The notes under the pieces are model-generated. The model searched no databases. It was given only the letters and a program-made list of their open reading frames with translations, and was not told where the DNA came from. Of a DNA stretch of 39,562 bases, positions 2,709 through 24,433 are shown piece after piece; positions within the stretch are counted from its first letter, which is position 1, and each line of letters begins with the position of its first letter. The stretch lies in the IMG/VR virus record IMGVR_UViG_2690316243_000006. The stretch is one strand, 5' to 3'. This stretch comes from a virus. Its lineage: Duplodnaviria > Heunggongvirae > Uroviricota > Caudoviricetes. The translations under genes were made by a program, and so were the position numbers.

Positions 2709-4763
2709 TTACGCGTTATTCACTTCCACCACGATACTGTCAATCAGTACCGGGTAAGTCGCATTTTTAGTGATATCGGTCACGCGCAACTTGTCTGCCG
2801 TAAACGTGCCGACCGGAGACTGCGACAGCATGAATGGTGTCCCGTCCTTACCATCAATGACCGGCGTCACCTCAATACTGTTGTTACCGGCAAAACGGAA
2901 GCCCAGCGTATGCCATTCGTTATTAAATGCGCCGAATGACCCCAGCTTCGTGTTCTGCGCCGTGTTTCCTTTGTGATACATCACGTTAAGGTCTGTGGCA
3001 TCGCTCTGTACGTAGAACGATGCCAGCAGGTTATGACCGGCATTTCCTTCCAGAGTAACCCCTTGCGGCAGGGCAGAAACCGGCCAGTACAGCGCCAGTG
3101 CGTACTGATTAGCCGTAAGCGCGCCATCGAGTTTAAAACGACAACTGACAAGACCACCTTTACCCAGCAGGTCCGCACCATTACCAGCATCATGCTCAAG
3201 GTACCAGGGGGCTCTTCCTGTTTCCTTGGTCAGTTTCATTGCCTTACCCCCGCTGGCTCCGGCATCATCCACGATTTGAGCCTTGCCACCTCCGGCAGCC
3301 CAACCCTGTGGTGTCAACCGTCCTTCAGACTCAGATGCCCGGTAAGCAAATAGCGTACTCATCGTCGTGGTGTCTGCGGGTGGCGTGGACGGTTTTGATG
3401 GTGTATCAGGTGACGGCTTCTCATCCGGTGGTGTCACGGTCTGCCCGCGCATCAGTTCAGCCGTGCGCCCTGCATGGAGCATAATAGCTGAGGCCAGACG
3501 GTCTGAAATGACGCCCCTGCGTGCCCATGAGCTGAAATGGCTGTCACGCTGTGTCGAAACAAAACTGCCCTGGGTTCGGGATGCTGCACCGTAATACCCG
3601 ACAGCCACAATATCCGGGTCTTCCGCCGGAGCATTCGTTGGCGTGCTCTGTCCATTCTCATCCGTCAGGAACGGTACAAAGAAAATTTTCTGTGCTTCCT
3701 TGCCTTTGTAGCCACCGTATACTGCCTCATATTTATCGGTGCCAGCGTTTTTCCAGTAATACGTGGTATCACCGCAAATCCACGGCACCGTGGTGGCATT
3801 TCCACTCACGCACTGCGCAGCAAGCGGAGCCAGGTCAGTTCTGAACTGCTGAACCATGGCCGTGAATAAACTATTATGCTGCTGGCTTCCTGAGGCAAGG
3901 TCTGCCTCTCCCTGCATCCAGACCACAGCCAGAAGTTTGTTTTTCGGGTTTTTCGCCAGCGCGACTTTGGTGCGGCTTACCAGGTCCTGATACAGAGGTT
4001 TACCGGCCCCCCAGCGTGAAGAATCAGCGGAAGCACCGCTGGCCTCACTGAATGAGCCGTCGGCTCCAGTGGTGAATGCTGACCCGCCACGACAACAGGG
4101 CACCAGAAGTATCCCGGCATTCTGTGGGATATAGGGAAGCAGTTTTTTGGCAATATGCAACCCCTGACCGACAGTCCCGTACTGGCCTTTTGCCAGATCA
4201 GCTTTCGGGTGGTTTATCCCGCTCATATCCTGAACATCATGCAGGCAGTGGTCTGCCGGAATGATGTCGTTGTATGTACACGACGTACCGTTGGGCGTTA
4301 CCGTACTGCGGCGTGCCAGTTGCTTAATGCGTGGGTCCGGGCGGTCAAACGAATCCGGTAACGGCAGCCCCTCGCCGTAGGCCATGCCATTTGACTGACC
4401 CGCGAGAATGACAACAAAGTAATATTCCGGCTCTGAACTGCTGCCATTCGTGCTACCGGAAGGCCCGGCGTTATCCGGTGCATTCCAGTCGGAGGGCGTG
4501 AGCGTTCCGGCCACGTCAGATGTGATTGGAATGATGCCAGTCACGCCTGAACTGGTGATTTCTGCACTGGGATTACCGGATACCGGCATTACCCATAATG
4601 GCTCTTTCGTGCTGAAGCGGATCACGCAGTCTGCGAAGGTGATCCCCCCTTTATTACCCGAAGGGCGGAAAGGGCTTTCAATAAATGCCACCGTGCCACC
4701 GGCAACCTTGACTGAAAACTCTCCGGGCATGGCGGAGAGCATTTTCCACTTGGAGTCTGACAT
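2709..4763 (-). CDS. Sialate O-acetylesterase-like protein (SASA/SGNH esterase domain, Pro/Thr-rich linker, C-terminal lectin-like domain); resembles prophage NanS-p proteins
   Basis: GQSNGMAYGEG and WMQGEADLASG motifs typical of the SASA family; linker TPPDEKPSPDTPSKPSTPPADTT; about 200-aa C-terminal domain; own promoter region after the gin terminator. Confidence 0.7.
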   Translation of the reverse strand: MSDSKWKMLSAMPGEFSVKVAGGTVAFIESPFRPSGNKGGITFADCVIRFSTKEPLWVMPVSGNPSAEITSSGVTGIIPITSDVAGTLTPSDWNAPDNAGPSGSTNGSSSEPEYYFVVILAGQSNGMAYGEGLPLPDSFDRPDPRIKQLARRSTVTPNGTSCTYNDIIPADHCLHDVQDMSGINHPKADLAKGQYGTVGQGLHIAKKLLPYIPQNAGILLVPCCRGGSAFTTGADGSFSEASGASADSSRWGAGKPLYQDLVSRTKVALAKNPKNKLLAVVWMQGEADLASGSQQHNSLFTAMVQQFRTDLAPLAAQCVSGNATTVPWICGDTTYYWKNAGTDKYEAVYGGYKGKEAQKIFFVPFLTDENGQSTPTNAPAEDPDIVAVGYYGAASRTQGSFVSTQRDSHFSSWARRGVISDRLASAIMLHAGRTAELMRGQTVTPPDEKPSPDTPSKPSTPPADTTTMSTLFAYRASESEGRLTPQGWAAGGGKAQIVDDAGASGGKAMKLTKETGRAPWYLEHDAGNGADLLGKGGLVSCRFKLDGALTANQYALALYWPVSALPQGVTLEGNAGHNLLASFYVQSDATDLNVMYHKGNTAQNTKLGSFGAFNNEWHTLGFRFAGNNSIEVTPVIDGKDGTPFMLSQSPVGTFTADKLRVTDITKNATYPVLIDSIVVEVNNA

Positions 4764-4833
4764 CGTCTTTTCTGCCTGTTTCTGAATTAAACAGAGTCAG
4801 AATAGCGACCGCTGAAAAATATGTGTTTTGCGG

Positions 4834-4868
4834 AAATTCAAAAAAGCGTCACGGTACTTTTGGTGACG
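4834..4868 (-). terminator. Intrinsic terminator at the 3' end of gin
   Basis: Minus-strand hairpin CGTCAC/GTGACG (4847-4868, overlapping the gin stop codon) followed by CUUUUUUGAAUUU. Confidence 0.55.
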
Positions 4869-5421
4869 GAGCTGGTGAGGCAGGAAAATAACGATAAAGG
4901 GTGGAAAGGCCAATATCAAATATCAGTGCGATTTGTTTACGGGACTCGCCATTAGCCAGCAAACGGGCGATTTGCTCCCGCTCTTTCTCTGTCAGTTTCT
5001 GAGGTCTGCCGCCATGACGCCCCTGAGCACGGGCAGCAGCAAGACCCGCGCGTGTACGTTCAATAATGAGTTCCCGCTCCATTTCCGCCAGCGCGCCCAT
5101 TATATGGAAAAAGAAACGTCCCATGGGAGTGGATGTATCAATATTGTCCGTAATGCTGCGGAAGTTAACGCCGCGTTGCCGGAGTTCTTCTGTTAAAAGG
5201 ACAAGGTGCTGCATACTGCGTCCAAGGCGATCCAGTTTCCAGACCAGCAGGGTATCCCCTGGCCGGAGTCGCTTTAATGCGCGTTTAAGTCCGGGACGCT
5301 CCCTTGTCTTACCGCTTATTCTGTCTTCGAAAAACAGCTCACATCCTGCACATTCCAGCGCATTTCTTTGTAGCGCCGTATTCTGGTCATTTGTTGACAC
5401 CCTGATATACCCAATCAGCAT
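4849..5421 (-). CDS. gin: Gin/Hin/Pin/Cin-family serine DNA invertase
   Basis: MLIGYIRVSTNDQNTALQRNALE... (catalytic Ser in RVSTNDQ), 190 aa, C-terminal HTH; adjacent to the invertible tail-fibre segment. Confidence 0.9.
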   Translation of the reverse strand: MLIGYIRVSTNDQNTALQRNALECAGCELFFEDRISGKTRERPGLKRALKRLRPGDTLLVWKLDRLGRSMQHLVLLTEELRQRGVNFRSITDNIDTSTPMGRFFFHIMGALAEMERELIIERTRAGLAAARAQGRHGGRPQKLTEKEREQIARLLANGESRKQIALIFDIGLSTLYRYFPASPAPSPKVP

Positions 5422-5486
5422 ACGATTTCCTTATTATAAAAAGCCGGAATTGTCGCATGAGGAATAAAACAGAGTTAATCCTGGCT

Positions 5487-5512
5487 TTCCTGAAAACCTC
5501 GGTTTACGGGAA
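5487..5512. promoter_or_regulatory. gix/hix-like recombination site (left), crossover core TC at 5499-5500
   Basis: TTCCTGAAAACC TC GGTTTACGGGAA; close to Mu gix and Salmonella hix half-sites; lies at the outer boundary of the left inverted repeat. Confidence 0.7.
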
Positions 5513-5860
5513 ACGGTAAACAGGGCGGCGAATGCTCTGCCATCGGACGGCACCGCCGTTGCCGCGAATAGACTCGCCACCCCAAGAAATATTAATGGGG
5601 TTCCCTTTGACGGGACGCAGGACATAAACATCACTTCTGGTATAACACAGCAGGATGCGGATTCCCGATATATCCAGGATATCAGGCTGGGAGCAGAGAA
5701 CAGGCAGACAATGTACGGTGGGGCATATTACTCTGCGTACGGTAATGTTATGGCAGGCCTGCAGATTGACAGTAAAGTTGATGCTTCAAACGATTTTATA
5801 GCATTCAGACCCCTGCAAAAATTAGTCGGAGGTACATGGATTACGGTATCTCAGTTATAA
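5500..5860 (+). other. Silent alternative tail-fibre C-terminal cassette (promoterless, no start codon)
   Basis: + strand frame open from the gix core to TAA at 5858-5860, encoding ...[47 protein letters not shown]...GGTWITVSQL; the first ~40 aa are identical to the corresponding part of the expressed fibre. Confidence 0.6.
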
Positions 5861-5911
5861 ATAGTCAGTAAATAATATATTTTAAAACAGATTTATTTCC
5901 AGGAGGATTTT

Positions 5912-6433
5912 ATGGAACTAAAAAATATAACCCGTTATTATCCTGAAAATATGCCATATGGTAATAATGTTCAGTATTTCCAGAGTGAAGATGGTAAGGA
6001 TTTCTACGAATCCCTGCCATTATTCACCAAAAAATATAAACTTTGCATAACACCTGACAGCGGCGTTATCTGCTCAATATCACAGGACGCCTCGGCGCTG
6101 TATCCTGCGGGGTTTTCTGTGGTTGAGGTCGATGAACTCCCTGAAGGCACGGATATTTCAGGAAACTGGAAGTTTGATAATGGCATAATCTCCCGTATTC
6201 CGGTTAACTACGCAAGAAAACTGGAAGCAATGCGCCAGTCATATCTTAATCAGGCATATGAAAAAATTAATGACTGGAGAACGGAGCTACAACTGGGCAC
6301 CATCAGCGATGAAGACAGAGCAGCACTTACCCAATGGATGGCATACATCAGTCAGGTGAAGAAAATGGAACTACCCGCCATTAAAACAGAAGCTGAATTT
6401 AACGCCATTAAATGGCCTGAGCAGCCACAGTAA
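5912..6433 (+). CDS. Tail fibre assembly protein (Tfa/U-like chaperone) inside the invertible segment
   Basis: AGGAGGA RBS; C-terminal region ...EDRAALTQWMAYISQVKKMELPAIKTEAEFNAIKWPEQPQ is typical of Tfa chaperones; currently antisense to the expressed fibre gene. Confidence 0.75.
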   Translation: MELKNITRYYPENMPYGNNVQYFQSEDGKDFYESLPLFTKKYKLCITPDSGVICSISQDASALYPAGFSVVEVDELPEGTDISGNWKFDNGIISRIPVNYARKLEAMRQSYLNQAYEKINDWRTELQLGTISDEDRAALTQWMAYISQVKKMELPAIKTEAEFNAIKWPEQPQ

Positions 6434-6436
6434 TAA

Positions 6437-6456
6437 AGAAGGCCGGAAGGCCTTCT
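6437..6456. terminator. GC-rich hairpin between the convergent Tfa and tail-fibre genes
   Basis: AGAAGGCC GGAA GGCCTTCT (8-bp stem, 4-nt loop); flanks are AT-rich but not a clean U-run on either strand. Confidence 0.4.
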
Positions 6457-6464
6457 GAATATCA

Positions 6465-7346
6465 TTATATACTTGCAGCCGTCACCCATGCTCCATTTAA
6501 CAGATACTGCAACGGCCGGTAATACACGCCGCCGACGTTATCTGCCGTATTCTTACCGACATCCTGTACTTTAATTCCGGTAAGAACATTGCCGCCCCCC
6601 AGATTCAGATCCCAGCTTTCCCATGTTCCGGGCATATGTGCGGTCACCGACCCCAGTCTTATGGCGGTTACTGTTCCTGATGAGATAGTGATATCCTGCG
6701 TCCCGTCAAAGGGAACACCATTAATTGTGTGGGCATTTGCCAGCCTGTTCGCGGCAACGGCGGTGCCGTCCGATGGCAGGGCATTCGCCGCCCTGTTTAC
6801 CGTTTCCCGTAAACCGACGTTATCGATAAAAGCCCCTTTATCCGGAATGTCTGCGCCGTTCTGCTCCCTGCGCAGGTAACGGTTATCACCTTCGCTTTTG
6901 CTGTAAACATCCAGATTATTACGGGCGGTTCCCTTATTCTCCAGGTCGGCGAGATTCTGATCCTTCGCCAGGGCATTAACGTCAGCGGGACCAAGACTGT
7001 TTTTTGTGGCAAGCGTCCCCAGACCAAGATAACCACGGGCCAGACGCTGGGCCTCCGCACCGGCATCAGCAATTTCTTTCAGGTTATTTTTCCGGGAAAA
7101 GGCATTCGCAGCGATAATGGCTTTAATGGACAGCGTAAGCTGGTTTAACTGCGCCTTATCCGGCTGAATACTGGCTTCAGCCAGAATATTCAGCAGTTCG
7201 GCCTGGAGAATATTCAGCCAGTCCTGACCAATCCAGCTGATACCTTTTTGTCCGTCACCTTCGGTAAACCAGGTGGTGGTATTACTCTGCGCCGGTGCCA
7301 GCGCAGGCATATTCGCCACGCCGGAATTATTATCAACATGAAACAT
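6465..7346 (-). CDS. Tail fibre protein (S-like), with the currently expressed C-terminal variable part
   Basis: 293 aa; reads through the right inverted repeat and gix site; follows the baseplate genes in Mu order. Confidence 0.75.
6804..6829. promoter_or_regulatory. gix/hix-like recombination site (right), crossover core GA at 6816-6817
   Basis: TTCCCGTAAACC GA CGTTATCGATAA; shares the half-site TTCCCGTAAACC with the left site in inverted orientation; lies inside the tail-fibre coding sequence. Confidence 0.7.
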
Positions 7347-7906
7347 TAAATAGTCTCCTCTTCATGGCTGTTTGCATAAACGTAAATAAACGTCTGCCAT
7401 GCAGGCTTATAACGGTTCAGAATACATTCCAGCGCACCGCCTTCATAAATACGCAGCGGCGTGAGAATATCATCCAGCACATTCATATTCCGGTAGCCGG
7501 TTTCACTGTTAATCGTGACAATACTGACCCACTGCGAATCCGGTGAGGGCTGAATGTCAATCTGATAACCAAACTCCGCCGCAAACCGGATATAAAATTC
7601 ACGGTTCAGCGAGGGCTTCATCCGGTATTTATTTCCGGCATAACGCTGTCGCTCCGTGAGGGTGGCTCCGGCCATATCACACTCGGGAAGCCCGAGATAA
7701 CGCTCCCAGTCTTCCAGCAGCAGGCGCGACGTGTCAGGGAAACGCTCGGCAAGCAGCTGTTTACCCGTCCAGGATACACGCGCTGTCGAATGACTGAGGC
7801 CCAGACATAATGATGCCAGTACGGATGACGGACGCTTGTCCCATGCCAGCCCGTCAGGCAGTAACTGCAACAGGGCGCGCTGATGCGGGGTCAGGGTTAC
7901 AGCCAT
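7346..7906 (-). CDS. Tail protein (Mu gp48 / P2 gpI-like)
   Basis: 186 aa, between the baseplate J-like gene and the tail fibre gene; assignment by synteny. Confidence 0.6.
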
Positions 7907-20756: not shown

Positions 20757-20933
20757 TCCGGCAGCATAAGCCGGTGTTTTTCGGGGCCGGTTTTGCGGGA
20801 CTTCAGAAAGTGCTGACAGGGGAAAAATGAGAAAGGCGCTTCACGCAGATTTTAAAGCCCGTTAAATACAGGTTAGAAAATCACGACACGCGCCTGAAGA
20901 GGGTAAGGTAATGCGTTTGTATACCTTAAACCA
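20757..20933. other. G-I intergenic spacer near the genome centre; candidate strong gyrase site
   Basis: 177-bp non-coding gap about 48 percent of the way along the prophage; in Mu the strong gyrase site lies in this spacer. Positional inference only. Confidence 0.3.
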
Positions 20934-21407
20934 TTACGGCGTTTCTGTGGCCTTTTTAAAGCGTTTTCTGATTTCGTCCATGATCTCCTGTTCTGCCACC
21001 TGATCAAAGCCCATATACGGACGTGCGCCAATGGCCGCCGGTCCCGGTGGCATACCAGGCAGGCCACCCCACTGATGAATGGCCGCATAAGGTTCATTTG
21101 ATCCAATCAGCGCCCAGGTATCGCCATAATCCGTGGTCAGGCGGCGGGCCAGATCGCCGTTCAGTGTCAGGATTTTGCCGGGCGTGTATCCCTTACGGGT
21201 ACGCCACTTGCGGTAAGGATCTGACCAGTCATGCCAGCGTTCGCCGTCCGGCTCTTTTTCCTGTTCAAACGCCATTTCTGACGATGACAGAAGACTCTCC
21301 GCCACACTGCGGGCCAGGTCTTTTCCGCCGCCCACAAACTGAAGCCGGGCAAACACCCGCTGGAGACGCGTAACGTCAACAACGACAGCGGCATCAATGG
21401 ATGACAT
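20934..21407 (-). CDS. Virion morphogenesis protein (Mu G-like)
   Basis: 157 aa; synteny between the F-like and I-like genes. Confidence 0.7.
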   Translation of the reverse strand: MSSIDAAVVVDVTRLQRVFARLQFVGGGKDLARSVAESLLSSSEMAFEQEKEPDGERWHDWSDPYRKWRTRKGYTPGKILTLNGDLARRLTTDYGDTWALIGSNEPYAAIHQWGGLPGMPPGPAAIGARPYMGFDQVAEQEIMDEIRKRFKKATETP

Positions 21408-21447
21408 ATTGCCTCCGCATAAAGGATGAATATAAAATAAACAGGCG

Positions 21448-21527
21448 GTCAGTGTACGCTTAACTGGTAAAGTCGGTGCCTGCCTCCGGGTGGATCATGT
21501 ATGCGGGTTCGACCCCCGCCACTGACC
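21448..21527 (+). other. tRNA-like structure (perfect acceptor stem and T-arm, no anticodon stem) in the F-G spacer
   Basis: GTCAGTG pairs with CACTGAC (7 bp); T-arm GCGGG TTCGACC CCCGC; U8-A9 and a GG-containing D-loop; no 5-bp anticodon stem can be formed. Confidence 0.35.
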
Positions 21528-21528
21528 G

Positions 21529-22860
21529 TTAATCAATTTGTCCTTCCAGCACCTCAAGCATTCCGCCCCGGATATCCGATTTCAGCTTATCCATATTGAT
21601 AACCCGGTAAGCATTCACAATCACATCCAGTTTGTCGGGCTGACGTTTCAGACTGTACGGTGCATTAACGGCAATCTGCACACTGCCATCCTTATTTTCC
21701 ACGATATACATCAGATTTTTGTGCCGTTTGTCCCACAGCACCGCTTTTGGCTTTGCCAGCATTGCCGGTAAGCGCCCGAAGTCCTCTGGCATCAGGGCGA
21801 TGCCGTCATTCTGATGTTTCACACTGTCTGCATGGAGCACATTTTTACCGCTCATCGCCAGCAGGCGGGCCGGTGGCGTTCCCGTCCGGCTTTCCACTGC
21901 CTGCGCAATGCTTTCAGTCATAAAGCCCAGCGTGCGGATATCGTTACCACCTCGCCGGGTCTGCATGATGTTTTTTGCCCAGATGCGGAACGCCAGCTGC
22001 CGCTCCGGGCTGTTGTTCATCTCCTGAACCACCATTTCCCGTAACGCCGGGCTTTTCACCTCGATCAGTTTGCGGATCAGCGCCTGGTCTGTGCCGAACG
22101 CTGCCGAGCCGGGGTTATATGACCAGCCCACATCCGGTGTCATGGTTCTGGTGCCATCTGAATATGTGGTCACCGGCATTTCTCTGACTTCTCCGGTCTG
22201 TTTATCCACGCCAGCCTCAACATTGCGGGTGGAGAGATGATCCTCACCGGATGAAACGGATAACCCCATTGCATCCAGACGAGCCTGAGACAATGGCCGC
22301 ACACGGCAGCGGCAGTTCCAGCCATTAGGTGGGTAGTGTGTTTTCCAGAACGGATCGTCATAGCGGAATACCAGACCGTTAAGGGCGGAATGCGACGGGC
22401 GGGTACGGCTGTCCATGACCGCCACATACTGCCAGAACGGATGCGTGTCCGTGTTGTTCATCATCTGCGTGTAACGCCCGGCATTGTAAGCCACACGGGT
22501 GTTCACGTTGTAAATCAGCGCCAGACGACGGGGACTGCCCAGTTGCACTTCTTCCGCGTTACCGTCGCTGTCCACCACAATCTGCTTTCCCCACCATCCC
22601 AGCTTTTGCAGGCGTGGCGTCAGCGTGCGGATAAATGCTTTCTGTGAAATTCCCTCATCAATGGCCCGCTGCACTTCGGCCTGTAACGTGGTCACCACAT
22701 CCAGGCGTGCCGCTTTTGCTGCCGTGAATGAGCGGGCATGAACATCCGCGGCTGTTTCGAACCAGTTCCAGCTGATATGCGCCCCTTTGACACGGAAGTA
22801 TGCTACCGCCTCTTTTGAGGGAAGCGTGGCGGCATAACCTAAATCAATCCCCTGTGTCAT
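21529..22860 (-). CDS. Head morphogenesis protein (Mu F-like)
   Basis: 443 aa downstream of the portal gene. Confidence 0.75.
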   Translation of the reverse strand: MTQGIDLGYAATLPSKEAVAYFRVKGAHISWNWFETAADVHARSFTAAKAARLDVVTTLQAEVQRAIDEGISQKAFIRTLTPRLQKLGWWGKQIVVDSDGNAEEVQLGSPRRLALIYNVNTRVAYNAGRYTQMMNNTDTHPFWQYVAVMDSRTRPSHSALNGLVFRYDDPFWKTHYPPNGWNCRCRVRPLSQARLDAMGLSVSSGEDHLSTRNVEAGVDKQTGEVREMPVTTYSDGTRTMTPDVGWSYNPGSAAFGTDQALIRKLIEVKSPALREMVVQEMNNSPERQLAFRIWAKNIMQTRRGGNDIRTLGFMTESIAQAVESRTGTPPARLLAMSGKNVLHADSVKHQNDGIALMPEDFGRLPAMLAKPKAVLWDKRHKNLMYIVENKDGSVQIAVNAPYSLKRQPDKLDVIVNAYRVINMDKLKSDIRGGMLEVLEGQID

Positions 22861-24433
22861 CCAGCATCCCCTTCATTTCCGCAGCAAACATGGCATCACT
22901 GAGCAGCGTCATCAGGCGGGAATCATCCATTTCACGATAAAGGGCAGGCAGGTCTGCCAGCGCATCCGCCAGCCCCCGCGTTCTGATGGCATCAATGACC
23001 GGCTCCAGTACCGGGTCGATGGCCTCCTGTAAGCGGCGGGCAGGCACCGCGTCCCCCATATCATCCAGTTCATCACGCGGCGTGCTTTTCGCTTCCGGCA
23101 GTCTGGCTGACAGCGCCGTCTGCTCTGTTTTTTCCTGTTTTTCCGGTGGTGTTTCCCTGTCGGTCTGAGCCGGTTCATTGCCACTCTGACGGACACGGAA
23201 TATGGCTTCACCGGGCGTGGGCTGCGGAATACCGGTCTGCTCCCGTATCCAGGGATCAGAAATATCCATCCCCGTACTGAGCTGCATCACCGCACTGGTG
23301 ATTTTGGTGATATCACCTGGTTCTTTGGTCTGGAAGCAGATACGTGGCAGACGGCGGATATCAATAGTGTGCGTGGTGTTCAGGGCGTACAGCGGATACA
23401 CCAGATCGCGGTTCAGGGTTGCAGCCAGCTGCCGTAAATCAGAATCCCTGATTTCCCGGCGCACCTCGTTATGCACCTCACCCAGCGAGCGCGCGCCTTT
23501 GTCTCCGGCTTCCGTGGTCAGCGTGCCGCCGAGTATTGCTTTGGAGATGGAACGCTCCCCCCACGAAATCATGGTTTCAAATGGATCGGCCTGACCGTTT
23601 GCTGCCGCCTGAAATTCCAGCGACATCCCGGCCGGGATGATCCCGCCTGTACGTCGCCCGATATCCATCACCGCCCGCATCAGGGCGCTTTTCTGCTCCG
23701 GTGTTGCCCCGGACGGGTATTTCCCGACCTTCATCGGCAGTCCGTACACCTCCAGAAATTCGGCCAGATCGCGCACGGAATAGTTTTTGAAAATGAACGG
23801 CCAGATAAGCGTCCTGACAAGCCCCGTTGCGCCACCGTAACCGGTCCGTGAACGTGACTGATGCACTATCCAGCCAAAAGGCTGAAACGCCACCCCGGCA
23901 TGGCTGCCGTCACGCAGCCGCAGTTCGCTCAAATCATCCGGGTTAAGGCAGAAATGCCCGCTGTCACGCCAGCGGATGGCGCGGATGATGTGCATTTTAC
24001 CGAGCATCCCGTGCTCAATTTCCATGCAGGAATAGCCCTTCAGGATGGCATCCGTGGCGTCAAACAGCATGGCATCAAACCAGTCTGCGGAATGCAGATA
24101 TTCGTCGAGCATTTCCGCGTCCTTTTTCTCATTCGCGCTGGCGTTCGGTGGCGGCTCAATACTCCATGGCACCCCCTGAATGGCAAGACGTCGCTTGCCC
24201 AGCTCCGCAAAAAGGTGGGTGTCCTTTTCTTCAATATCAGCGGCCAGATCGGACTGGGCAATCAGATCGCCACGTTCAGCCCCGCGAAGGCACTGCGCCG
24301 CCCGGTTCGGGGTGATACCCGAAGCCGGATGTTCAATATAACGGCTGGCAATCTGCGGAATATCCAGCGCGGCACTCTGCATCTCCGGGTCAAAGGAGAA
24401 AGGTTTTCCGTCAGTATCAATGATGCGTCCCAC
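22844..24433 (-). CDS. Portal protein (Mu H-like)
   Basis: 529 aa directly after the terminase large subunit gene. Confidence 0.8.
   Translation of the reverse strand: MGRIIDTDGKPFSFDPEMQSAALDIPQIASRYIEHPASGITPNRAAQCLRGAERGDLIAQSDLAADIEEKDTHLFAELGKRRLAIQGVPWSIEPPPNASANEKKDAEMLDEYLHSADWFDAMLFDATDAILKGYSCMEIEHGMLGKMHIIRAIRWRDSGHFCLNPDDLSELRLRDGSHAGVAFQPFGWIVHQSRSRTGYGGATGLVRTLIWPFIFKNYSVRDLAEFLEVYGLPMKVGKYPSGATPEQKSALMRAVMDIGRRTGGIIPAGMSLEFQAAANGQADPFETMISWGERSISKAILGGTLTTEAGDKGARSLGEVHNEVRREIRDSDLRQLAATLNRDLVYPLYALNTTHTIDIRRLPRICFQTKEPGDITKITSAVMQLSTGMDISDPWIREQTGIPQPTPGEAIFRVRQSGNEPAQTDRETPPEKQEKTEQTALSARLPEAKSTPRDELDDMGDAVPARRLQEAIDPVLEPVIDAIRTRGLADALADLPALYREMDDSRLMTLLSDAMFAAEMKGMLDDTGD

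Follow-up and report, generated by a model that had tools for sequence, protein, structure and literature searches.

A tRNA-shaped RNA without an anticodon loop accompanies the predicted RNase domain of head protein F in Mu-like prophages

We describe a small tRNA-shaped RNA gene that lies between genes F and G of a Mu-like prophage (IMG/VR record IMGVR_UViG_2690316243_000006; the window, as used below, is the whole stretch of 39,562 nucleotides that was analysed). In sequence comparisons the RNA co-occurs strictly with the intact conserved residues of MuF_C, the C-terminal domain of the head protein F, with four independent co-losses and six correct predictions out of six. The best explanation is that the RNA is functionally tied to this domain, a predicted metal-independent RNase of the Barnase-EndoU-ColicinE5/D-RelE (BECR) fold and of the colicin D, RelE and CdiA-CT kind. 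To the whole reading, in which the gene is independently transcribed and its product, an L-shaped tRNA mimic, neutralises the adjacent predicted RNase domain of F as an uncleavable decoy, we assign a probability of about one half. An original prediction made from this DNA alone is partly supported: its proposal of a structured element stands, its proposals of a tRNA remnant and of a late-mRNA hairpin do not, and the link to the C-terminal domain of F had gone unseen.

Results

The RNA and the conserved MuF_C residues are lost together

MuF_C, or PBECR, is the phage clade of the BECR fold; the copy in phage Mu was judged inactive and those of its orthologues active, and RNA binding was suggested as a role for the domain (Iyer et al., 2017; PMC5512222). 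In phage Mu the genes F and G overlap, and there is neither a spacer nor a tRNA-like gene. In a first alignment of F C-termini the motif HADSxKH is found in six phages that carry the RNA, whereas it is replaced in one locus (L060) and deleted in Mu, both of which lack the RNA. The survey covered 80 viral loci with an F C-terminus, each searched with R1, a covariance model of the RNA family built here, and read for the motif. The loci divide as follows:

RNA directly after the F stop codon: 58 loci (45 distinct C-terminal sequences); H-[A/T/I]-D-S-x-K-H in 58 of 58; RNA-bearing spacer.
Mu type (L177-L191): 15 loci; 7-residue deletion of the motif; F and G overlap, no RNA.
L171 (the same locus as L060): 1 locus; motif replaced (TLFNEANS...); F-G gap of 9 nucleotides (nt), no RNA.
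L192, L194 and L195: 3 loci; H changed to Q (QADSV[K/Q]H); no gap, no RNA.
Remaining loci: L135 (~1630-1980), where an insertion disrupts the 3' end of F and the RNA; L174 and L176, both cut by contig ends.

The 18 complete RNA-less loci fall into three lineages, and the first His of the motif is lost in all of them. A second element, N-x-Y, is present in all 58 RNA-bearing loci. Four stretches, one of which contains this N-x-Y, behave in the same way, being kept with the RNA and lost in all three RNA-less classes: WDK, x-N-L-(L/M)-Y, a K/R-K/R pair and (V/I)-N-[A/T]-Y. In a neighbour-joining tree of the N-terminal 265 residues of F, a part separate from MuF_C, each RNA-less lineage is nested among RNA-bearing lineages, indicating three separate co-losses of RNA and residues.

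For six further loci, which had not been used to derive the rule, the presence of the RNA was predicted from the motif alone, and the prediction was correct in every case (6/6). Four of them combine the motif with an RNA at the stop codon (P0143, 62.3 bits; P0144, 44.4; P0145, 47.4; P0142, 60.8), while both motif and RNA are missing from P0146 and P0147, where G starts 4-8 nt past F. The nearest relatives of P0146 carry the RNA, so that this locus represents a fourth independent loss. P0144 is a stand-alone MuF_C gene of 141 amino acids (aa), found in an Oceanospirillum metagenome-assembled genome and on two marine contigs; it is followed by the RNA and has no G gene in its vicinity, a layout indicating that the pair of RNA and MuF_C persists apart from the rest of F and the late operon. 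Pfam MuF_C is still recognised in the RNA-linked proteins, and is not recognised in P0146. A sequence search of the PDB and a Foldseek search, both with the F C-terminal domain, returned nothing significant. An extra toxin domain on F was considered and ruled out, the protein being of ordinary length (443 aa). The relevant features of F in the window are:

21529..22860, - strand: gene F, MuF head protein of 443 aa (list of open reading frames, ORFs), with Pfam Phage_Mu_F at aa 58-187 and MuF_C (PF18819) at aa 347-429; its stop codon (21529-21531) adjoins the 3' end of the tRNA-like stem.
21532..21858 (approximate boundaries), - strand: MuF_C (PBECR) domain of F, predicted BECR-fold RNase.
21814..21834, - strand: motif HADSVKH, F residues 343-349 (translation).
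21604..21618, - strand: motif VNAYR at F residues 415-419 (translation), placed in strand four of the predicted fold.

Structure of the RNA in the window

The element occupies most of the 121-nt spacer between F and G (21408-21528) and lies, as had been predicted, on the + strand antisense to the late operon. Its parts are:

21447..21527, + strand: tRNA-shaped RNA gene, positions -1 to 73 (Rfam tRNA and own covariance model).
21447..21454, + strand: 5' strand of the acceptor stem including G-1, pairing with 21520-21527.
21458..21473, + strand: D arm GCTT / AACTGGTA / AAGT (Rfam alignment; the helix covaries).
21475..21499, + strand: hairpin replacing the anticodon arm (folds, homologue comparison).
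21503..21519, + strand: T arm GCGGG / TTCGACC / CCCGC (sequence).

The pairing of GTCAGTG with CACTGAC, on which the original prediction had been built, is confirmed with an offset of one base (21448-21454 with 21520-21526), and the stem is lengthened by G21447:C21527 (-1:73) and C21446:G21528 (-2:74). The T arm (21503-21519), U8-A9 (21455-21456) and the GG of the D loop (21466-21467) are all as described there; one extra C (21457) separates A9 from the D stem, and the D loop reads AACTGGTA. No CCA is encoded, the next bases being GTT, and the same holds for every copy of the RNA family. The original prediction had not succeeded in building an anticodon stem. A stem does exist, formed by a basal G·U/U-A/G-C helix (21476-21478 with 21496-21498), an internal loop and a 5-base-pair (bp) apical helix (21480-21484 with 21489-21493) closed by a UCCG tetraloop (21485-21488); what is absent is the canonical 7-nt anticodon loop. 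Lacking both this loop and an encoded CCA, the RNA is unable to decode, and the view that it is not a functional tRNA was correct.

Automated annotation gives a mixed picture. ARAGORN finds neither a tRNA nor a transfer-messenger RNA (tmRNA) in the window, and the element, at roughly 81 nt, is too short for the tRNA-like domain plus tag-peptide reading frame that define a tmRNA. A scan of the whole window against Rfam at gathering threshold gave no match under default speed filters, which account for the empty result; with sensitive filters on 21350-21600 the tRNA family RF00005 matches 21448-21527 on the + strand with 31.0 bits (gathering threshold 29; E 6.7e-5), and no other Rfam family matches the element. 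In this alignment the acceptor, D and T arms and the tertiary bases are those of the family, while the anticodon arm is skipped (24 nt instead of 18), there being no 5-bp stem with a 7-nt loop, U33 and an anticodon. Our own model R1 scores 86.8 bits at 21445-21529. The + strand folds into a cloverleaf with the UCCG hairpin as third arm (-31.5 kcal/mol; z of -1.7 against shuffles, a modest value), and the fold of the - strand is weaker (z of -1.0). As the fold of the single sequence lies just modestly above shuffles, the case against chance rests on comparison. The gene is already known in the sense that RefSeq genomes of E. coli label the identical sequence tRNA-OTHER, with some copies on genomic islands misleadingly called "tRNA-Tyr". 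The window type of F-G spacer was found in 173 of 5426 complete E. coli genomes.

Conservation and covariation among homologues

Homologues were gathered by pattern, protein-anchored and similarity searches; the pattern scan of genome contigs returned 8 loci, 2 of them chance matches, and short-query protein searches gave few proteins, largely partial. In Mu-like prophages the RNA sits in the spacer between the F stop and the G start, on the strand opposite to the late genes, in E. coli, Citrobacter braakii, Edwardsiella anguillarum, Leminorella grimontii and Alishewanella jeotgali, and also in Mu-like prophage loci on gut and marine metagenome contigs. In the distant hosts F is 47-54% and G about 40-44% identical to the window proteins, and the acceptor, D and T arms are almost unchanged. 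The cloverleaf that was tested comprises 23 pairs, drawn from a 9-bp acceptor (including -1:73 and -2:74), the D stem, the basal third stem and the T stem. In a first MAFFT alignment of 22 distinct copies, for which slid partners and 500 shuffles served as controls, 91.3% of cells are paired compared with 39-53% for slid partners, 15 of the 23 pairs are altered on both sides, and 0 of the 500 shuffles attain the observed pairing values. A second alignment, fitted to the covariance model R1 and biased towards it, gives 91.8% of cells paired compared with 37-50% (17/23 pairs altered on both sides) for 36 distinct copies. Compensatory changes affect 7 of 9 acceptor pairs among the 22 sequences and all 9 among the 36, the D stem (helix 2) and the basal third stem covary in both alignments, and the T stem is paired in 100% of cells, with the variants GCGGG/CCCGC, GCAGG/CCTGC and GTGGG/CCCAC.

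Homologues contain 93 G·U or U·G cells and 10 A·C or C·A cells. A G·U pair becomes a mismatch in RNA read from the - strand, so the excess identifies the + strand RNA as the selected molecule. Together with the weaker - strand fold, it shows that the hairpin which the original prediction had envisaged in the late mRNA, between the F-like and G-like genes, is not the selected feature. Bases expected to make the tertiary contacts of a tRNA are also kept (U8, A14, A15:U48, G18, G19, A21 and a T loop UUCRAYY). Preservation of helices and tertiary bases across F proteins about 47% identical, in a gene with its own conserved promoter, is at odds with a tRNA remnant, whereas the suggestion of a structured RNA element is borne out by the covariation in 22 and 36 homologues; the check that had been proposed, conservation and covariation in related prophages, thus returns conserved paired positions with compensatory changes. 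By this comparative evidence the gene encodes a structured tRNA mimic that is under + strand selection and has no anticodon loop.

Within E. coli, variation falls in the promoter spacer and the RNA itself is unchanged. The O157:H7 allele (L084 301-420; E. coli O157:H7 PA20 and many O157 genomes) has G57A as its sole difference, giving the T loop TTCAACC; owing to this purine-for-purine change PGAP leaves the copy unannotated. One E. coli prophage (L086 1501-2471) has an IS3-family element inserted within the tRNA-like gene, a natural knock-out, and the disrupted locus L135 is a second one. Among true tRNAs the nearest are tRNA-Ile(UAU) genes that metagenomic phages carry within tRNA clusters (L011 3775-3867, L014 1307-1384, L092 135-223 and L096 2692-2780), some with long variable arms; the T arm and 3' acceptor strand that they have in common with the RNA family hint at its origin.

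The third arm carries no anticodon loop

A 5-bp stem with a 7-nt loop occurs in 0 of the 36 distinct homologues. All 36 variants have a short covarying basal stem, an internal loop and an apical hairpin, whose loop is UUCG in 9 of them and UCCG, GCAA, CUUG-type or another sequence of 3-10 nt in the rest; many third arms are closed by UNCG, GNRA-like or CUUG tetraloops. Close E. coli relatives have swapped the third-arm sequence wholesale, with the remainder of the molecule fixed. On one homologous locus (L076) ARAGORN gives a 2-base "anticodon".

Several identities within the tRNA family were considered and rejected. For a decoding or suppressor tRNA, anticodon loops of 7, 8 and 9 nt were sought by hand and by folding, and none is conserved. 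The PGAP label "tRNA-Tyr" on island copies goes back to a GUA within the 4-6-nt loop of a palindromic hairpin. Histidine identity through G-1:C73 is not indicated either: the pair is G:C in most copies, yet A:U, U:A, G·U and mismatches occur, and no conserved identity element is evident there. Finally, the extra acceptor pair recalls the 8/5 architecture of tRNA-Sec, of which no other feature fits.

A predicted promoter precedes the RNA

The spacer also contains a candidate promoter on the same strand as the RNA:

21409..21438, + strand: sigma-70-like promoter TTGCCT-18-TAAAAT (promoter scan).

The -10 hexamer ends 8 nt before G-1, and the -35 hexamer coincides in part with the ribosome-binding site that serves G on the opposite strand, the start codon of G lying immediately upstream of the promoter. 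Of the 35 distinct sequences upstream of homologues, 34 have a sigma-70-like hexamer pair at equal distance; both the hexamers (TTGCCY/TAAAAT, TTGAAC/TATACT, TTGCAT/TAGGAT) and the spacers vary by lineage. The RNA is probably transcribed in vivo from this predicted promoter. In a Leminorella-type lineage a G+C-rich hairpin with a U-rich tail, resembling an intrinsic terminator, directly follows the RNA. No terminator follows the RNA in the window lineage, where transcription should thus continue antisense into the part of F that codes for MuF_C.

Copies outside the F-G spacer

Small E. coli islands at tRNA-Ile carry 2-3 tandem divergent copies of the RNA at their far end and have no F gene. 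Their genes include an integrase, an Icd-like protein, a RepA helicase, SSB, PerC and Mor. In their third arms and D stems, the three island copies correspond to the three types of the RNA present in E. coli prophages. One such island of ~8 kb (L083 1659-9926, E. coli STEC2018-607; also L081) has GTGAAA iteron-like repeats between mor and the array, and the tRNA-Ile island looks like a phage satellite. A 1.1-kb metagenome contig (Ga0209599_10049188; L093 1-1116) holds a frameshifted, motif-bearing F C-terminal fragment flanked by two RNAs. F fragment and RNA are tandemly duplicated there, with two quite different RNAs (66.9 and 48.3 bits), and the contig may represent a genuine orphan module, or else an artefact of assembly or sequencing. 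Both the island arrays and this layout resemble orphan immunity modules. In Alishewanella aestuarii B11 (L073 3656-7844) a copy at 4456-4527 (+) lies outside any late region of the Mu type, some 730 nt past a host tRNA-Gly(CCC) gene and about 300 nt outside the far end of a CRISPR array, which shows a 60-nt periodicity over 4828-6870 and is accompanied by a Cas6f-like ORF at 7275-7844 (-).

Three other roles were examined against these layouts and discarded. An attachment-site remnant or integration target does not fit islands that integrate at the host tRNA-Ile and carry full-length copies at the far end. As for a partner gene common to prophage and islands, Mor is the only one shared, and it is also present in Mu, which lacks the RNA. 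Mu likewise has both Mom and a gyrase site, which speaks against a link of the RNA to either.

Gene neighbourhood of the window prophage

The late genes of the window prophage are on the - strand. ORF list and Pfam matches identify a transposase-sized ORF and homologues of Gam, GemA, Mor, lysozyme and Gp27, together with homologues of portal, F, G, protease, major head protein and Mom. The gene that follows F in the late operon is:

20934..21407, - strand: gene G, Phage_tail_S family (ORF list and Pfam), downstream of F.

Directly upstream of F is a 529-aa ORF (22844-24433), homologues of which carry Pfam Portal_Mu in related loci, so that F of the window has its N-terminal MuF domain beside a portal gene, the arrangement that characterises MuF toxins. 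Between G and the protease gene lies a non-coding spacer of 177 nt (20757-20933); in phage Mu an annotated gyrase cut site is found there, and the spacer may correspond to the strong gyrase site of Mu and to the late promoter for the head genes. The Mom homologue (483-1415, -; 310 aa) matches Pfam Mom over residues 96-298 and has an N-terminal extension of ~95 residues that matches nothing. An ORF at 4849-5421 (-), which starts MLIGYIRVSTNDQ, resembles a Gin/serine-recombinase N-terminus by eye only; it adjoins a + strand tail-fibre-assembly ORF (5912-6433, Caudo_TAP), and the layout of 4849-6433 is like the invertible G segment of Mu.

Discussion

A proposed immunity RNA and its alternatives

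The proposed mechanism assumes that the C-terminal domain of F is probably an active RNase and that the RNA binds it and inhibits the predicted activity. Transcription from the RNA's own sigma-70 promoter would take place in the lysogen and soon after infection, and the RNA would bind the RNase domain of F as a substrate look-alike without a cleavable site, thereby keeping the predicted RNase harmless in the producing or lysogenic cell. The antisense orientation would allow a constitutive promoter to sit within the late operon without activating G or the genes past it, and read-through from this promoter would be antisense to the MuF_C-coding part of F. The position of the RNA at the F stop codon, equivalent to that of immunity genes in MuF toxins, is counted in favour of an immunity role. 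On this model the island arrays would be collections of orphan immunity RNAs. More tentatively, and with somewhat less than even confidence, a virion-borne BECR RNase and an anticodon-less RNA may constitute a new toxin-immunity pair, for which the islands would collect arrays of orphan immunity RNAs, one per F type circulating in E. coli.

Several points weigh against inhibition by a decoy. Phages with this type of F are viable, and F is a structural head protein whose toxicity is putative. An RNase whose recognition is confined to the anticodon stem-loop would not be bound by a decoy that lacks the anticodon loop. The gene faces strong late transcription, and the supply of RNA during late synthesis of F would depend on its stability. 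Nor does the 3' end look like that of a mature tRNA, since CCA is missing and pairs -1:73 and -2:74 are conserved. Moreover, the co-loss is equally compatible with an inhibitor, a substrate or a cofactor. The RNA may accordingly be a partner of the F C-terminal domain in another capacity, as substrate, cofactor, cargo into the capsid or next host, guide or scaffold, a possibility that we consider unlikely though worth serious attention. It draws on the same co-occurrence and co-loss data and leaves the direction of the interaction free, and type III toxins also process their own RNA. Copies of the RNA in islands without F and in Alishewanella aestuarii are harder to explain for a dedicated cofactor than for a free-standing protective RNA, and a constitutive antisense promoter suits expression in the lysogen, when F is not made. 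RNA binding had, on the other hand, been proposed for the domain itself (Iyer et al., 2017; PMC5512222).

Readings that dispense with the F domain fare worse; an independent decoy and a cis-acting element fit the data much less well than do substrate, cofactor or cargo. The first would be a free-standing tRNA decoy against host or rival factors that recognise the upper half of a tRNA (tRNA-targeting defence nucleases, toxins that modify acceptor ends, tRNA-processing enzymes), with a merely physical link to F. The conserved acceptor, T and D arms and elbow beside an anticodon arm that is free to vary, the separate promoter and the accessory positions in satellite-like islands all suit this idea, and phage tRNAs are known to counter tRNA-cleaving defences. 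We nevertheless judge it improbable, as linkage fails to explain why the same F residues (the His motif, WDK, N-L, K/R-K/R and N-x-Y) are lost in four independent RNA-less lineages, and it leaves unexplained a stand-alone MuF_C gene that keeps the RNA alongside. A cis element of the late operon, either a 5' cap or processing signal of an antisense transcript of the F 3' end or an F-G hairpin in the late mRNA, appears very improbable. Antisense transcription into F is expected where no terminator follows the RNA, as in the window lineage, and tRNA-like processing signals such as that of mascRNA/MALAT1 are known elsewhere; yet members of the RNA family are found away from F-G spacers too, in one lineage the RNA is immediately followed by a terminator-like hairpin, the G·U excess denotes + strand selection, and the bases of the L-shape are kept although a plain hairpin would not need them. 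The last reading, a functionless decaying phage tRNA gene or attachment-site remnant, would account for the negative ARAGORN result, for the missing anticodon loop and CCA, and for the T arm in common with phage tRNA-Ile(UAU), its nearest tRNAs. Compensatory covariation in all helices, a conserved promoter, the confinement of E. coli changes to the promoter spacer and the high identity of the RNA across hosts whose flanking F and G are just 40-47% identical largely refute such a pseudogene on comparative grounds, and it deserves hardly any credence.

Implications

Literature searches returned no paper that describes this RNA or connects MuF with a tRNA-like gene. The product may be classed as a tRNA-like non-coding RNA, possibly an RNA antitoxin. 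If the immunity mechanism is true, it would define a distinct class of toxin-immunity pair, give a function to the tRNA-OTHER genes of many enterobacterial Mu-like prophages and to the MuF_C domain of a classic head protein, and bring a tRNA mimic into the small group of RNA antitoxins. A phage could then carry a capsid RNase restrained by an RNA, and prophages and satellites might shield their hosts against effectors that related phages inject. The rule derived from the motif (H-x-D-S-x-K-H present, RNA present) supplies ready-made mutants of the predicted active site as well as natural negative controls, including phage Mu.

Comparison with known systems

The role proposed here is that of type III toxin-antitoxin systems (ToxIN, CptIN, TenpIN), in which a non-coding RNA neutralises an endoribonuclease encoded next to it and which are found on mobile elements in phage conflicts. 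Type III antitoxins are tandem repeats encoded upstream of the toxin on the same strand, co-transcribed with it and cut by it into units, and the toxins have the ToxN/AbiQ fold. The tRNA-like RNA departs from this definition, being a single cloverleaf downstream of F on the opposite strand with a promoter of its own and, as its proposed partner, a domain of predicted BECR fold that forms part of a virion protein.

Other small RNAs offer partial parallels. The C4 RNA of phages P1 and P7 and the CI RNA of P4 are small stable phage immunity RNAs that undergo tRNA-like processing involving RNase P, but they act by base-pairing of loops to mRNA and are not full cloverleaves. Phage tRNAs form another group of phage-borne tRNA-family genes in conflicts over tRNA nucleases, as proposed here; T5 tRNA-Tyr reportedly counters the tRNA-cleaving defence of retron Ec78, and tRNA-Tyr is the label that PGAP gives to some island copies. 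Such anti-defence tRNAs are complete decoding molecules that replace cleaved host tRNAs, whereas the family described here has no anticodon loop in any variant examined. The tRNA-like domain of tmRNA and the mascRNA/MEN-beta RNAs likewise combine acceptor and T arms and an elbow with no working anticodon loop, do not decode and are handled by tRNA enzymes. tmRNA differs in carrying an ORF, in being alanylated and in working with SmpB, whereas mascRNA arises by 3'-end processing in eukaryotes; no nuclease gene is linked to either.

The genetic layout resembles that of MuF polymorphic toxins, whose immunity genes lie directly downstream of the toxin gene (Jamet et al., 2017; PMC5576092). Common to both are a MuF N-terminus beside a portal gene and orphan-like modules; the putative effector domain at the C-terminus of F and the proposed protective gene directly after it would extend the parallel. 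The immunity factors of MuF toxins are small proteins encoded on the same strand, and their toxin domains are exchanged among unrelated folds; here the downstream product is an RNA from the other strand, and the F proteins are of ordinary length with one homologous C-terminal family. The F-G spacer (21408-21528) contains no ORF of at least 60 aa, so that the immunity-gene position matches and its occupant is a promoter with an RNA gene. Colicin D, finally, is inhibited by ImmD, a protein that imitates tRNA, whereas the inhibitor proposed here would be a real tRNA-shaped RNA.

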